A stretch of DNA of 64,000 nucleotides, taken from positions 3,040,001-3,104,000 of the forward strand of contig CBDCKW010000009.1 in assembly GCA_965218435.1 (NCBI GenBank). Reading direction: 5' to 3'. This document shows positions 17,187-22,811 of this stretch, piece after piece (position 1 is the first letter of the stretch; every line of letters begins with the position of its first letter). The stretch is from Truepera sp. GTDB taxonomy: Bacteria; Deinococcota; Deinococci; Deinococcales; Trueperaceae. The position numbers and the translations under genes were made by a program. The notes under the pieces are model-generated. The model saw only the letters and a list, made by a program, of their open reading frames with translations. It did no database searches and had not been told where the DNA came from.

Positions 17187-17639
17187 CCGACCTCCCCACT
17201 AATGTCACACGCAAAAAGAGATAGTAGGCCACCTCTCATTGAGACTATACAAAAATGTGCGGTGGTTCTTCAAACAGTGCGGCTTCGGTACCTTAATTCA
17301 TGTTTGAATGACCTGAAACCGGTTGATCTAACGGTTTGACCTAAAACCGGTGCCTCAGTCAGGACTTACGCATGTGACAAGGTTTCACCGGCAAAGGTAA
17401 CGTACAGCTTTCGGTGGCACTGCCGACCTTCGCGCAACTTTTGCACTGTCAGTGTTGGCGACGTTGGTAGAAAGAAACCTATAAGCTGGTTGACCCTGAG
17501 CACGGCAGTGACGGAGACACAAAAACTTCGCTGTAATCCATAGGCGTAAGCCCCGCTAGACGTCTCCGAGCGTCATAACGACGTCAACTTGACGCTCGCG
17601 GAAAGACAGAGGGCTCGAGACGCCCTTTAAGAAAATACA

Positions 17640-17754
17640 CTAGAACCTATCTCAAAAATGGCTTTCTAGCGTGAGAGCGTCCTATCTTACTCGCCTAGCT
17701 CGGTCAAACCCTCACCGGGCTCCGCCCGCCAAGGGTTTTTGAGATGGCTTCTAG
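17640..17754. mobile_element. Putative MITE (about 115 bp) with terminal inverted repeats, flanked by CTAG on both sides
   Basis: Left TAGAACCTATCTCAAAAA versus reverse complement of right end TAGAAGCCATCTCAAAAA (16/18); homologous copy at 32673. Confidence 0.7.
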
Positions 17755-17819: not shown

Positions 17820-18047
17820 ATGCCCCAACTCCATTTTTACGTCCCTGACGACGTAGCTAAACAGATTCAAGAAAAGGCTAAGGCCAAAAACCTGAGCGTG
17901 TCGAAGTACGTTGCTGAAATGGTGCAGCGTGAAACGCATTCAGGATGGCCTGAAGGTTATTTTGAGCGTGTCGTCGGCAAGTGGCAAGGCGAGCCGCTCG
18001 AGCGGCCCGAAGAGCTACTCACCGAAGAGCAAGACTCTTTTGATTGA
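17820..18047 (+). CDS. Ribbon-helix-helix antitoxin (VapB-like)
   Basis: QLHFYVPDDV..QI..KA...NLSVSKYV RHH pattern, acidic tail, directly upstream of a PIN toxin. Confidence 0.8.
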   Translation: MPQLHFYVPDDVAKQIQEKAKAKNLSVSKYVAEMVQRETHSGWPEGYFERVVGKWQGEPLERPEELLTEEQDSFD

Positions 18048-18071
18048 GCTTTTAGCTGCGCCGCTTACGAG

Positions 18072-18485
18072 ATGACCTATTTGCTCGACGCCAATGCCTG
18101 CGTTCACCTCCTTAACGGCACTTCAGCTTCCCTTTTAGAACGGTTTCGCCGCGAAAGTCCGTCGACTTTACGTATGTCGTCAGTTGTCAAGGCAGAACGG
18201 GCTTTTGGCGCACGCAACTCGAGCCGACCTGCGGAAAACTTACGCCTGATCGCGTCTTTTTGGGAGCCGTTTGAAAGCTTGCCGTTTGACGACCCCTGCG
18301 CAGAGCAGTACGGTCTTATCCGCGCCGAACTCAAACGCCAAGGGCGGTTAATCGGCGCTAACGACATGTTGATTGCGGCTACCGCCCTAGCTCGTGACGT
18401 GACGCTAATCACGCACAACACGCGGGAGTTCGCGCGGGTACCAGGATTAAAGCTCGAGGATTGGGAAACGCCTGCAGGAACGTAA
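18072..18485 (+). CDS. vapC: PIN-domain toxin VapC
   Basis: YLLDAN, AE, IGANDMLIAATAL, LITHNTREF, GLKLEDW. Confidence 0.93.
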   Translation: MTYLLDANACVHLLNGTSASLLERFRRESPSTLRMSSVVKAERAFGARNSSRPAENLRLIASFWEPFESLPFDDPCAEQYGLIRAELKRQGRLIGANDMLIAATALARDVTLITHNTREFARVPGLKLEDWETPAGT

Positions 18486-18759
18486 CGACAACGCTGTCGC
18501 CCAAATCATAAGGGCAGCGTTACCAGGACGACTAAGGACTGTGGCACAACAAAGTCAAGACCAGACGACGTTTGCTGCAGCTGCCGGGCGTTTGAACCAT
18601 ACCGTTTGAACAGCAGTGCTTGACTTCTGTGCTCGAGTTCAAATAGGGACAATTTACGCTATCTAAGGCGCAGACATCGTTCTATAATTGAACAACTTTA
18701 TGAGCTTACCGGGCACTTTTCGGCGCAGGGCGAGTTTTAAGCAACTCCCTACATTAGAA

Positions 18760-19089
18760 ATGTGCCGTTTTAGCTCCCCTGCTCGGCTGAGGGTGGCCGC
18801 ATCTACCGGCCTCGTCACGCTGCTTATCGGTTGGCTCGTGGTCGCACTCTTTTTGGCCCCTTATTGGTCGGCGCAGACGAACTTTCCGGGGCATCAGCAT
18901 CCCAAGGGGACACCGCCGCATACGCACAGCATCGAAGCTGTTCTCGGTCACGCCGTTATGGTGGCTGCGGTCACTGCCGTATTCTTCATACTGCAAGCTT
19001 TCGAGTCGCTACTGTTACCACCCGTTTTGTGGCTCGAGCGCACCCTCCCCAAAAGAGCCCACGGGAGCCGCGCGCCACCACTTTTCTAA
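18760..19089 (+). CDS. Small membrane leader protein with His-rich motif and C-terminal RAPP; putative metal-sensing ribosome-arrest peptide
   Basis: Hydrophobic segment, GHQHPKGTPPHTH, second hydrophobic segment, ends HGSRAPPLF-stop; directly upstream of copC. Start uncertain (18688, 18700 or 18760). Confidence 0.72.
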   Translation: MCRFSSPARLRVAASTGLVTLLIGWLVVALFLAPYWSAQTNFPGHQHPKGTPPHTHSIEAVLGHAVMVAAVTAVFFILQAFESLLLPPVLWLERTLPKRAHGSRAPPLF

Positions 19090-19320
19090 ACGCTCGGCAA
19101 TCAGCCCCTGGCAGAGCTTTGCCTTAACGGAGACGAATCCCGTTGCTGTAACGCTTTATAACACCGTCCAGAGCTCATCGCTTGCAGCGAGCATTTCCAC
19201 AAACACGACACTTAAACGATCACGACACTTAATGCAACACTTAATGTGCGTACCCAGCGGCATTTTCTCAACTGAGAGAATTGCCAACCAGCTGACACCT
19301 ATAGCTTTAGAAAGGCACTG

Positions 19321-19752
19321 ATGAAAACACCCCTGCTATGCACGGTTTTGACATGTATTTTGACCCTTGGAACCCTGAGCTTCGCCCACAGCAGCTTGGT
19401 CTCTTCAAGTCCTAAAGACGACAGCACCGTCAAGGAGCGCCCTACTCAGATCAGCATGACGTTTTCCGAAGAGGTCGAACCGCAATTTTCTACCTTTGTG
19501 GTCTACCCGCTCGGTCAAGAAAAAGATCACGAGGCGCTCGAGGAAAAAGCCGACACCCTCTTGCCTCAAGTCCTGAGTAAGCCTGACGGCAACCAAGTGA
19601 ACGCTAAGCTGACGACCCAAGAGGCGAGCGATACCATCACCTTGGCGCTGCCCAAAGACCTGAAACCCGGCAGTTACGCGGTCATGTGGCGGGCACTCTC
19701 CGTTGATACGCATACCGTCCAAGACCTGATGGTGTTCACCTATCAGCCCTGA
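19321..19752 (+). CDS. copC: Copper-binding protein CopC
   Basis: Signal peptide ending SFA with His1 in HSSLVSSSP; FSE.VE, G.Y.V.WRALSVDTH motifs. Confidence 0.93.
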   Translation: MKTPLLCTVLTCILTLGTLSFAHSSLVSSSPKDDSTVKERPTQISMTFSEEVEPQFSTFVVYPLGQEKDHEALEEKADTLLPQVLSKPDGNQVNAKLTTQEASDTITLALPKDLKPGSYAVMWRALSVDTHTVQDLMVFTYQP

Positions 19753-19754
19753 GC

Positions 19755-20699
19755 TTGATAGCACTCGCGCTCGTTAAAGCACTGCTTTTGCTAGGAGCCA
19801 TCTTGCTCGTGGGCAGCGGCGTGACGGCGACGATTGTTGCGCCGGAACTGACTATTACGGGACGCGCCTTACGTCGTCGTATCACCTGGGGAGCCGTCGT
19901 AGGCGCAGGGCTGCTTCTGCTCGGCAGTGCGTTCGACCTCGCGCTGACCCTGCTTAATGCGCTGGGTCGGCTTCCCTCTCGTGACCTAACTACCAGCTAT
20001 CTGGGCAGTACCCGTCACGGTCACGCCATCCTCGTGCGGACGGTGTTGGTCGGCTTGGTTTTACTCTTGACGTTCTGGCTTACCCGCCGTCAAAGCCGCC
20101 CTCAAAACCGTCGGCCCTGGCTTATCGGTATTTACCTTGTCGTAAGCTGTTTGCTCCTGGGTACGTTTAGCTATACGAGTCACGCCGCGGCGATGGGCGG
20201 CACCCCACCGCTATTCGCCGATCTCGCCCATTTTGCCGCCGCAACCGTGTGGGCTGGCCCACTTTTTTATCTCGCGCTCGTGCCGGACTGGGGCGAGCCG
20301 TATCAGACCGGTCTACAAATCGCCTTCAAACGCGTATCGTTTATCGGCCTCCTCAGCGTGCTGACGCTTTTTGCCACGGGCATTTATACGACGCTCGTCC
20401 ATCTGCAAGACCCGGCTCGTTTTGCCACCTCGCCTTACGGTTTCGCGCTTTACGCCAAAGTCGCGCTCGTGCTGATCACCGTAGGCTTGGCGACCGCTAA
20501 CCGTTTCTGGTTGTTACCCGCTTTTTTGCGCCGAGGTGCAGTCCGTTTCAAGAGAGCAGTGCGCCTCGAGAGTGTACTGCTCGTAGCGGTCCTGCTTGCC
20601 ACCGGCGTCCTCACCACCAGCGCCCTGCCTCACGGTTCAGGTGAAGCCGATGCGTGGACTAATTTCGTTCACCTCATTCAGATACTTCAGGGAGACTAA
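19755..20699 (+). CDS. copD: Copper transport membrane protein CopD
   Basis: About 8 TM segments; TSHAAA, HFAAATVWAG, SPYG..L..K, ANRF motifs; TTG start 2 nt after copC. Confidence 0.88.
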   Translation: MIALALVKALLLLGAILLVGSGVTATIVAPELTITGRALRRRITWGAVVGAGLLLLGSAFDLALTLLNALGRLPSRDLTTSYLGSTRHGHAILVRTVLVGLVLLLTFWLTRRQSRPQNRRPWLIGIYLVVSCLLLGTFSYTSHAAAMGGTPPLFADLAHFAAATVWAGPLFYLALVPDWGEPYQTGLQIAFKRVSFIGLLSVLTLFATGIYTTLVHLQDPARFATSPYGFALYAKVALVLITVGLATANRFWLLPAFLRRGAVRFKRAVRLESVLLVAVLLATGVLTTSALPHGSGEADAWTNFVHLIQILQGD

Positions 20700-21665
20700 A
20701 TGCTTAAGTTTGTTTTACCTACACTAGCTGCAACCCTTTTTGCCGCCGCTTCAGCCCAGCAACCCGTAACGGTTACGTTTAACGGGATGGTCGGTGACGC
20801 GCCGATCGCGTGCGGTCAAGACTATCCCAACATCGGCAGCGAGGGGACAACCATCGCCTTTCAAGACGCCCGGATGTACGTCTCGAACCTCCGCCTCATC
20901 AACGCTGCGGGTCAAGAAGTACCGATTAGCCTCGAGCAAGACGGGCTCTGGCAATATGAGAACGTCGCCCTGCTGGACTTTGAAAACGCCACCGGCGGCT
21001 GTAGCGACGTTGGCACCAAAGCCACCAACAACCAGGTCAAAGGCACCGTACCCGAAGGCAACTACGACGGTTTAGTCTTCGATTTAGGTGTCCCTTTCGA
21101 GCTGAACCACGCCGACGCCACGACCGCACCCTCACCGCTCAACGTGTCGTCACTTTTTTGGAGTTGGCAGTACGGGTATAAGTTTGCCCGTATCGAAATT
21201 CTTAAGGCGCAAGTCGCGGGCTCTAATGCACAGGATGAGACGGTGAACGTCAGTAAAGGGAACCAGGCGAGTGCTAAAGCACTGGGTCACGCAGGTGAAA
21301 TGGATATGGGGGACGGCGCAGCCAACGGCTTTTGGCCGATTCACCTAGGCAGCACCGGTTGCACCTCGCCCGCCCCGGTCGTTAGCCCCACCGCTGAGTG
21401 CGCGCGCCCCAACCTGAGCACGGTACGGCTCGAGTCTTTCAATCCCACAAGCGATACGGTGACCTTAGACGTTGCAAGGTTACTTGAAGGCGTTGACGTC
21501 GGCAAGTCGCTCGAACTGGCCCCTCCCGGCTGCATGTCGGGGTTTGACGACCCCGACTGCCCTACCCTTTTCAAAAACCTCGGCTTAGCCCTCGAAACCG
21601 GGAAAGCCACCGCCTCACAAACGCTCTTCCGCGTGACCGGTGGAGGCGCTCGGACAAGCCGTTAG
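20700..21665 (+). CDS. mbnP: MbnP-family copper-binding protein (metallo-mystery pair partner)
   Basis: Signal peptide; DARMYVSN, LLDFEN, FDLGVPFELNH, LFWSWQYGYKF (WxW), HLGSTGC, GCMS; 6 Cys. Confidence 0.9.
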   Translation: MLKFVLPTLAATLFAAASAQQPVTVTFNGMVGDAPIACGQDYPNIGSEGTTIAFQDARMYVSNLRLINAAGQEVPISLEQDGLWQYENVALLDFENATGGCSDVGTKATNNQVKGTVPEGNYDGLVFDLGVPFELNHADATTAPSPLNVSSLFWSWQYGYKFARIEILKAQVAGSNAQDETVNVSKGNQASAKALGHAGEMDMGDGAANGFWPIHLGSTGCTSPAPVVSPTAECARPNLSTVRLESFNPTSDTVTLDVARLLEGVDVGKSLELAPPGCMSGFDDPDCPTLFKNLGLALETGKATASQTLFRVTGGGARTSR

Positions 21666-22811
21666 ATGAAACATCTGCTGTTCATTTTGTTCGTTTTGGG
21701 AGGTGTCCTGGCGCTGCTGGGCACCACCTCCCCACCCGAAGCGTCGCCATCCGGGGCGAGTTATGAGTGGGCGCTGCCGACCGGGTTTCCGACGCCTATT
21801 GTCCCCAAAGACAATCCGATGAGTGCTGAAAAGGTCGCGCTGGGCCGTTACCTTTTTTACGACAAGCGGCTTTCAGGTAACGACACCCAAGCGTGCGCGT
21901 CGTGCCACGAGCAAGCCAAGGCGTTTAGTGACGGCAAAACGGTCGCCGTCGGTTCGACGCAAGAGGCGCACCTGCGTAACGCCCAGAGCTTAACCAACGT
22001 CGCCTATAACCCGACCTTGACCTGGGCGAATCCGGGGCTGACGGGGCTCGAGCAACAGGTGCTCATCCCCCTCTTTGGCGAAGGCCCCATCGAACTTGGG
22101 TTAGCCGGTAAAGAAGAACTCGCCCTCGGCGTGTTCAAACAAGACAAGCGGTATCAAAAGCTCTTTAAGGCCGCGTTCCCGAAAGACGCCGACCCTTTTA
22201 CCGTGAGCAACATCGCCAAGGCGCTCGCCTCGTTTAGCCGCACCATCATCTCGGGCGGGTCGCCGTATGACCGGTTTGTCTACAGCGGGGAGCGTAACGC
22301 GCTCTCCCCTTCGGCGATAAGGGGGATGACGCTGTTTTTTTCGGAACGGACCGAATGCCACCACTGTCACGGCGGCTTTAACTTCAGCGATTCGGCGGTT
22401 CACGAGGGTACCGGGTTTCCTGAAACGCCTTTTCACAACACCGGGCTCTACAATTTGGACGGCCTGGGCGCGTATTCGAAAGGCAACCGGGGGCTCTATG
22501 AGATTACCGGCAAACCCGGCGACATGGGCAAGTTTCGCGCCCCTTCGCTCCGCAACGTAGAGCTGACCGCGCCGTACTTTCACGACGGCAGCGCCCGAAC
22601 ACTTGAGGAGGTCGTCAGTTTTTACGAAGCGGGCGGACGTGTTATCAAGACCGGGCCAAATAGGGGCGACGGTCGGCGTAACCCCTACAAGAGCGGGTTT
22701 GTTCAGGGGTTTAAGCTGACCGACCAAGAGCGAACGGATTTGGTCAACTTTCTGAAAAGCCTGACTGACCGCTCCTTGCTTACAAATTCGGCGCTGAGTA
22801 ATCCGTTTTAG
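21666..22811 (+). CDS. mbnH: MbnH-family di-heme cytochrome c peroxidase/MauG-like enzyme
   Basis: NP...EKVALGRYLFYD.RLS, CASCH and CHHCH heme motifs, GKFRAPSLRNV..TAPYFHDG; abuts mbnP. Confidence 0.92.
   Translation: MKHLLFILFVLGGVLALLGTTSPPEASPSGASYEWALPTGFPTPIVPKDNPMSAEKVALGRYLFYDKRLSGNDTQACASCHEQAKAFSDGKTVAVGSTQEAHLRNAQSLTNVAYNPTLTWANPGLTGLEQQVLIPLFGEGPIELGLAGKEELALGVFKQDKRYQKLFKAAFPKDADPFTVSNIAKALASFSRTIISGGSPYDRFVYSGERNALSPSAIRGMTLFFSERTECHHCHGGFNFSDSAVHEGTGFPETPFHNTGLYNLDGLGAYSKGNRGLYEITGKPGDMGKFRAPSLRNVELTAPYFHDGSARTLEEVVSFYEAGGRVIKTGPNRGDGRRNPYKSGFVQGFKLTDQERTDLVNFLKSLTDRSLLTNSALSNPF

Follow-up and report, generated by a model that had tools for sequence, protein, structure and literature searches.

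A four-histidine, Cys-free leader as a putative metal-sensing ribosome-arrest switch of a copper operon in Trueperaceae

The 64,000-nucleotide stretch of Truepera sp. DNA studied here (the window) raises the question of what a small open reading frame (ORF) does at the head of a copC-copD-mbnP-mbnH operon. A sequence-only reading had proposed that the ORF encodes a leader peptide, that its His cluster senses metal, and that its C-terminal RAPP motif arrests the ribosome. The ORF, the His cluster, the motif, and the gene order are all borne out by the sequence and by profile matches (Table 1). We conclude that a cis-acting, metal-sensing ribosome-arrest leader probably heads this operon. The four-His family to which it belongs is most likely an unannotated His-only variant of the kind of switch represented by CruR and CutF, systems that we compare with it as they are described in the cited papers. 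In those accounts the copper responses of CruR and CutF are opposite in sign, and how copper alters arrest is a question on which the present leader bears.

Table 1. Positions of the leader, its parts, and the genes that follow it (numbered from the first letter of the window)
Feature	Position	Strand	Remarks
Candidate -10 hexamer TATAAT	18683..18688	+	Putative; 11 nt 5' of the likely start codon
Leader ORF	18700..19089	+	129 aa (probable start); a start at 18760 would give 109 aa
N-terminal helix with membrane/export segment	18778..18870	+	AlphaFold2 helix 7-37 of the 109-aa form
His cluster H65-x-H67-x6-H74-x-H76 (129-aa numbering)	18892..18927	+	Putative metal site
Second hydrophobic helix	18931..19011	+	Within the 47-residue spacer
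RAPP arrest motif, R124-P127	19069..19080	+	R, P, and P invariant
Predicted anti-Shine-Dalgarno (anti-SD) strand	19081..19094	+	Last codons and stop of the leader; pair probabilities 0.67-0.94 with 19303-19315
Intergenic region, 231 nt	19090..19320	+	Single-copy; 68 C versus 46 G; internal hairpins close the long helix
copC ribosome-binding region, partner of the anti-SD strand	19303..19315	+	Predicted pairing
copC, periplasmic copper-binding protein	19321..19752	+	PF04234, E 5e-21
copD, inner-membrane copper protein	19755..20699	+	PF05425, E 3e-16
mbnP family copper-binding protein	20700..21665	+	TIGR04052, 291.9 bits (cut-off 140)
mbnH family di-heme enzyme	21666..22811	+	TIGR04039, 522 bits (cut-off 362.85)

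The leader and its family

The leader ORF encodes, in order, a hydrophobic N-terminal segment, GHQHPKGTPPHTH, a second hydrophobic stretch, RAPP, the residues LF, and a stop. It had been described as an ORF of about 110 aa from position 18760; the end is right, but the start probably lies at the ATG at 18700. The Met encoded at 18760 is replaced by Ser or Thr in the two closest homologs, P0001 (95% identical) and P0002 (78%), which begin with MSLP and match the reading frame from 18700, and for these reasons we rejected the start at 18760. The preference for 18700 also rests on the position of the TATAAT hexamer. Similar hexamers (TATAGT and TACAAT) stand 11 nt before the start in relatives (L091 and L149); over all 56 loci, -10-type hexamers are scattered in their distance from the start. 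We found no -35 element that fits the TATAAT, and a sigma-70 promoter scan of 18400-19400 returned no promoter. The three terminator-like sites from the scan of that interval all lie inside the ORF, and none is a U-tailed terminator in the leader-copC gap.

Searches with one protein and with a profile recovered the leader family in 51 of the 102 other genomes available for the host family Trueperaceae and in none of 198 genomes sampled from four other families of Deinococcota; counted over all 301 genomes, the total of 52 takes in the window's own genome and one weak match (G259). When a profile was run against 1.84 billion representatives, 124 matched at E<=0.001, most of them without a recorded taxon. 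Among 20 clusters whose records were consulted, taxon names were limited to Truepera radiovictrix and a Deinococcales bacterium, and the proteins were called "hypothetical" or "uncharacterized" or had no name. T. radiovictrix is a cultured species that encodes a family member, and experimental tests are therefore feasible. A metagenome scan for the family returned one locus. In the ESM Atlas, 30 unnamed look-alike clusters (scores up to 0.95; commonest taxon Methylomirabilota) and, as the nearest named clusters, DUF2946 (11% of members) and DUF6769 serve as leads only.

The sequence-only reading had named conservation of the His cluster, of RAPP, and of the distance between them as a check, and this conservation is found. 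Both motifs (HxH-x5-7-HxH, then an arrest-type motif) occur in 113 of the 124 representatives, and the spacer between them is 44-47 residues long in 111 of these 113 and in 53 of 54 genome loci. The His pattern is missing in 7 of the 124 and the arrest motif in 4, some of these being fragments or false matches. Among the 113, the motif is RAPP in 90, RGPP in 14, RDPP in 4, RSPP in 2, and REPP, RLPP, and RWPG in 1 each. Three His, the Arg, and both Pro are invariant, and the fourth His is at least 90% conserved, in an alignment of 116 sequences (the query added; 8 of the 124 excluded as fragments, frameshifted sequences, or repeat matches, and one long sequence also excluded); all four His are invariant in an alignment of 20 family members. 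Over 11 close pairs, dN/dS is 0.20 for the membrane segment, 0.11 for the His cluster, 0.29 for the spacer, and 0.02 for the arrest motif. This conservation shows that the leader ORF is translated and is under purifying selection in all four regions. It is also unlikely that the combination of motifs is a matter of chance, given these ratios and the outcome of a search of all six frames of the 4.8-Mb genome. That search asked for R[AGSD]PP no more than 25 residues from a stop, with at least three His, or CxxC/CxxxC, 38-62 residues upstream, and it returned only this ORF and its paralog.

The first hydrophobic segment is membrane-like (hydropathy >1.6) in 100 of 106 homologs. The second hydrophobic stretch, also reported earlier, is present in the window but is not constant (membrane-like in 47 of 106), and we rejected the idea that a second membrane helix characterizes the family, because 59 of the 106 have none. 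Sequence and hydrophobicity of the spacer drift, but its length is conserved. The absence of CxxC that had been pointed out holds as well: there is no Cys in the mature region of the window's leader, and a CxxC pattern occurs anywhere in only 1 of the 124 representatives. As the leader is free of Cys and has the same spacing as CruR and CutF, disulfide-based models are ruled out for this family, and the Cys-free version lets ligand chemistry be probed apart from geometry.

Some family members depart from the common pattern. One divergent leader (L085, the P0119 sequence) has an altered His pattern and two Cys and precedes two BtuF/FhuD-like binding proteins; possibly it has a different metal input. 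The RDPP subgroup (L075, L076, L079, L082, and L083) heads operons of the nosL-nosL-(nosD) type. The paralogous His leader in the window's own genome (L031:1495-1806, that is, G000:C9:2381107-2381418; scan match at G000:C9:2381073) precedes a NapH/NosR-like Fe-S membrane protein. The start of that neighbor homologous to a GTG in genome G005 appears as ATC, a rare start codon, behind GGAGG; provided that the ATC start is accepted, the Pro codons of the paralog form an 8-bp helix with that Shine-Dalgarno (SD) sequence.

Predicted pairing across the leader-copC gap

The leader had been placed directly upstream of copC, and copC is indeed the next gene, but a 231-nt gap lies between them. The gap is 43 nt in the closest genome, and over the loci the distance from the Arg codon to the next start is 67-424 nt (median, 152). 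We rejected a mobile repeat as the origin of the long gap because it is single-copy in the genome. The sequence ACACTTAA occurs three times within it, at 19208-19246 (one copy recognized by eye), and is absent from the short gaps of relatives.

In the predicted fold of 19030-19345 (z -2.2), the end of the leader pairs with the ribosome-binding region of copC in a helix that has 10 contiguous base pairs, spans the 231-nt gap, and closes over about 210 nt. A ribosome that stalls with the Pro codons in its P and A sites would have the leader strand of this helix within its footprint. If that footprint is forced, the unpaired probability of the SD region rises only from 0.14 to 0.45; positions 19314-19316 remain 0.83-0.97 paired in an alternative fold. 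The forced footprint produces a rise of more than 0.2 in 12 of 46 loci and a fall of that size in none. An earlier folding test, limited to spans of at most 150 nt, missed the long helix here and gave a rise above 0.2 in 5 of 54 loci.

A pairing test set the 30 nt that begin with the third RAPP codon against the 20 nt before the next start. The tested interval was picked after the fold of the present locus was known, and it covered 46 of 56 loci, nine with doubtful downstream starts and one without downstream DNA having been excluded beforehand. At least nine contiguous pairs were found in 11 of the 46 loci versus 3.6% with swapped partners, and none of 200 permutations reached the observed mean; the corresponding figures are 0-3 of 46 for three upstream intervals and 5.2% for 693 ordinary same-strand gene pairs. 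Helices of at least 9 bp occur in 5 of 20 genera, and resampling with one locus per genus gave p<0.05 in 99% of 300 draws. The helix sequences differ among lineages. Loci L065 and L068 exchange a C-G pair for U-A in a 13-bp helix, a compensatory change, and the helices of the window, L149, and L091 have one double-sided and three wobble-type changes between them. The RNA output is not universal, as 35 of the 46 loci and all nine with doubtful starts lack a 9-bp contiguous helix.

From these features we propose how the switch may work. The ORF is translated as a membrane-targeted peptide, as its conservation shows, and its first segment would direct cotranslational targeting. It is very likely that the ribosome arrests with both Pro codons of RAPP in its P and A sites, as reported for other RAPP peptides (PMC12992588). 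According to the same source, RAPP by itself is insufficient for arrest, and G, S, D, or E at motif position 2 keeps full or partial arrest in ApdA/ApdP; the family departs from A at this position almost only to such arrest-permissive residues. The His cluster lies 50-61 residues from the P site, and by analogy with CutF, for which such a geometry has been argued (PMC9973294), it would be exported and stand at about the periplasmic mouth of SecY. We consider it reasonably probable that copper is the metal bound by the four His at this point, 47 residues before the Arg. For this locus, folding and covariation incline us to the view that the arrested ribosome covers 19081-19090, which would otherwise be paired with the copC ribosome-binding region, and that arrest thereby frees copC translation and turns the operon on. 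With about the same inclination, we suggest that the His loop folds when it binds the metal, that the chain is pulled in consequence, and that the arrest is thereby released, so that the operon would be on if copper is scarce and off if it is plentiful. Lost translation, or exposure of the C-rich gap, might perhaps add Rho termination. The proposed switch would combine the polarity of CruR with an RNA output of the CutF type, and the predicted anti-SD helix would offer a precise, mutable output. The sequence-only reading had named no route from arrest to the downstream genes, and this helix would provide it.

Relation to known arrest leaders

The likeness to CruR and CutF that had been suggested holds in architecture and in spacing. 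The DUF2946 profile check that had been called for found no match of the window's leader to PF11162 at E<=1 (gathering cut-off, 23.7 bits); 1 of 20 family members scores 9.7 bits (E 2), and the paralog reaches 20.4 bits, close below the cut-off. Pfam and NCBIfam scans of the leader assigned no family.

CruR (Bp2923 of Bordetella pertussis), the prototype of DUF2946, resembles the family in standing first in its operon, in its export or membrane segment, and in the long gap that follows. In CruR, too, a metal motif is separated by about 45 residues from RAPP at the C terminus, CopC, MbnPH-like, and PepSY genes lie downstream, and the stall keeps the operon on, as we propose for the window's leader. 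CruR requires its CxxC-RAPP spacing of 45 and does not need its export signal (PMC9426467); arrest and a toeprint have been reported (PMC12992588). In contrast, CruR has CxxC where the family has HxH-x6-HxH, the family falls below the PF11162 cut-off, and CruR works by Rho termination, whereas in part of the family the evidence favors an anti-SD helix. CutF of Rhodobacter capsulatus shares with the family a sensor exported cotranslationally, the 45-residue spacing, and an anti-SD strand that holds the SD until a stall frees it (on the family side, a prediction). CutF differs in having CxxxC, a PPP stall that needs EF-P, a local stem-loop, a multicopper oxidase downstream, and induction by copper (PMC9973294; 10.1101/2025.02.05.636593). 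In the family, the predicted anti-SD strand takes in the last codons of the leader and reaches its partner across 45-330 nt (CutF-like gaps are mostly <100 nt [PMC9973294]), and the genes look like those of uptake and delivery. The window's leader (129 aa, PP two residues from the end, 231-nt gap) falls within the filters used for the CutF-like set, namely <150 aa, PP within 15 residues of the C terminus, and a same-strand neighbor within 1000 nt (PMC9973294).

His-only versions have been described before. CutF-like clusters 14 and 17 are small exported leaders with a His-only putative metal site and a C-terminal PP motif, as in the family; compared by description only, they precede HupE/UreJ (Ni/Co), whereas the family precedes copper genes (PMC9973294). 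RAPP leaders precede copper genes in many phyla, and arrest has been shown for seven Streptomyces peptides (PMC12992588). Two of the arrest peptides of Streptomyces lividans, SLIV_16130 and SLIV_18480, for which arrest was shown in vitro and in vivo, have RAPP/RGPP, precede metal genes, and carry conserved His like the family; unlike it, they also have conserved Cys, and SLIV_18480 has four membrane segments (PMC12992588). Ten supplement files of that study make no mention of Truepera or Deinococcota.

The novelty first claimed for the leader was therefore overstated. His-only CutF-like clusters (PMC9973294) and DUF2946 leaders from Deinococcus (PMC9426467) are already published, and it is the family itself that appears to be unreported: we found no description of a four-His leader family in a literature search that lay outside most subscription journals. 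Nor is it true that Deinococcota were without such a system. CruR homologs in Deinococcus, and DUF2946 leaders before CopC and MbnPH-like genes, are on record (PMC9426467), and 31 of 251 Deinococcota genomes contain CxxC leaders of the DUF2946 type that score above the Pfam cut-off.

These CxxC leaders of Deinococcota are similar to the family in several respects. The best 30 all have HxxH-CxxC (HxxD in one) followed after 41-43 residues by RAPP or RGPP; their last His stands in the same register to RAPP as the last His of the family, and they also head CopC-type operons with the same set of downstream genes. Locus-matched anti-SD pairing just after RAPP is predicted for them as well (L118-L147; at least 9 bp in 9 of 29), a feature that the CruR model does not include. 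This signal suggests that freeing of the SD is more widespread among such leaders than the CruR model would predict. Common descent of the family and the CxxC leaders is conjectural, as a profile-profile comparison with 28 Deinococcota DUF2946 leaders aligns just the RAPP end (probability, 27.6%). Both leader types share one operon in three genomes (L066, L098, and L105): the His leader opens the operon and is followed by a NapH/NosR-like Fe-S membrane protein, and two genes farther along a CxxC leader precedes the His1 Ig-fold gene and copC. We regard it as speculative, and on balance unlikely, that Trueperaceae carry two arrest sensors, one with four His for Cu(II) at the SecY mouth and one with CxxC for Cu(I), both switched by an anti-SD strand in the arrest codons and the next few, with the SD up to about 330 nt away. 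If true, this would amount to oxidation-state-specific, layered translational control of one operon.

Downstream genes and competing explanations

The copC gene of the window is the only CopC found in the genome. The copper context assumed for the leader extends to the family: CopC, CopD, MbnP, NosL, or YtkA is encoded within 5 kb downstream in 41 of the 54 loci (of 56 fetched) that had sufficient downstream DNA. At least one recurring gene type is found in 53 of the 54, with families named from scans of selected ORFs: CopC (30 loci), the NapH/NosR-like Fe-S membrane protein (23), CopD (21), an unannotated Ig-fold protein (19), a His/Met-rich periplasmic protein (16), and a di-heme protein of the MbnH/MauG type (11). 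Among the downstream proteins scanned, there is no copper-type efflux ATPase, multicopper oxidase, or RND pump. The genome's copper P-type ATPase is elsewhere (L150:1429-4533), beside a divergently placed CsoR-like gene recognized by eye. We read this as a copper efflux arm under separate control, away from the leader operons, which would themselves serve copper uptake and delivery.

Four His suit several divalent metals, and the arrest leader could answer Ni, Co, or Zn, or else copper with the polarity of CutF, metal then prolonging the stall and turning the operon on. The four His alone do not indicate copper, since the published His-only clusters 14 and 17 precede Ni/Co genes of the HupE/UreJ family (PMC9973294). 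Three operons with both a His and a CxxC leader suggest different inputs, the divergent member before BtuF/FhuD-like binding proteins points the same way, and an anti-SD output resembles that of copper-induced CutF. We nevertheless find this doubtful, as copper-handling genes follow in most loci, no HupE/UreJ gene is found among the downstream proteins scanned, and the CopC/CopD/MbnPH/PepSY context fits CruR-type operons (PMC9426467). Possible to a similarly limited degree, and compatible with our preferred reading, is the same sensor and arrest with Rho-dependent termination in the leader-copC gap as the main output and the anti-SD helix as a secondary one. Over the 45 nt after the stop, C exceeds G in 45 of 55 loci (mean skew, +0.20), compared with a skew of -0.006 and 46% positive among 852 same-strand gaps of the window's genome; a rho gene is present, the distances from Arg to the next start are long and variable, and most loci lack the long helix. 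However, the control gaps come from one genome, the window's own skew is just +0.11, and the anti-SD strands are themselves C-rich and could generate the skew.

Two further explanations would deny the His cluster or the arrest motif its proposed role. A monitor of secretion or membrane insertion (ApdP/MifM type), in which pulling by SecYEG, aided by the second helix, releases the arrest and the His loop is structural, would agree with the nearly universal coding of exported or membrane proteins by the first downstream genes and with a second helix that starts about 46-48 residues before the P site here. We judge it improbable, because most homologs lack that helix, the four His are nearly invariant with a low dN/dS, metal genes follow, and no sec or yidC genes are among the downstream proteins scanned. 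It is more improbable still that the product is a small trans-acting membrane metallochaperone with an incidental RAPP. The AlphaFold2 model of the 109-aa form is confident (mean pLDDT, 86) and its His loop is ordered, but pTM is just 0.55 and Foldseek gave no match in the PDB at E<=0.001. Moreover, RAPP-type motifs are scarce in the proteome (RAPP 8 and AAPP 38 in 1.13 million residues) yet invariant in the leader, the leader gene heads its operon, the length of the spacer is conserved despite drift in its sequence, and the anti-SD pairing is locus-matched.

Two of the recurring downstream proteins are unusual in themselves. A secreted Ig-fold family of 145 aa (L097:982-1413 and 18 other loci), without a Pfam or NCBIfam match over cut-off, is almost always encoded beside copC and has a His at its predicted mature N terminus, as in CopC and YcnI. 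A membrane polyferredoxin of about 520 aa with weak NapH/NosR similarity (L105:3323-4876 and 22 other loci) recurs in the copper operons; CcoG is a cupric reductase, and by analogy this protein is a possible candidate for the same activity. The leader and copC are uncoupled in two loci, by a DDE transposase in L111 and by a decarboxylase and a GNAT gene in L090. Just upstream of the leader in the window, on the same strand, is a vapBC-type toxin-antitoxin pair (17820-18485; VapC over the NF047863 cut-off). Two dispersed noncoding repeats precede this pair, one of about 200 nt (17354-17557) with 4 further copies at 74-85% and one of 114 nt (17640-17754) with two identical and a dozen diverged copies.
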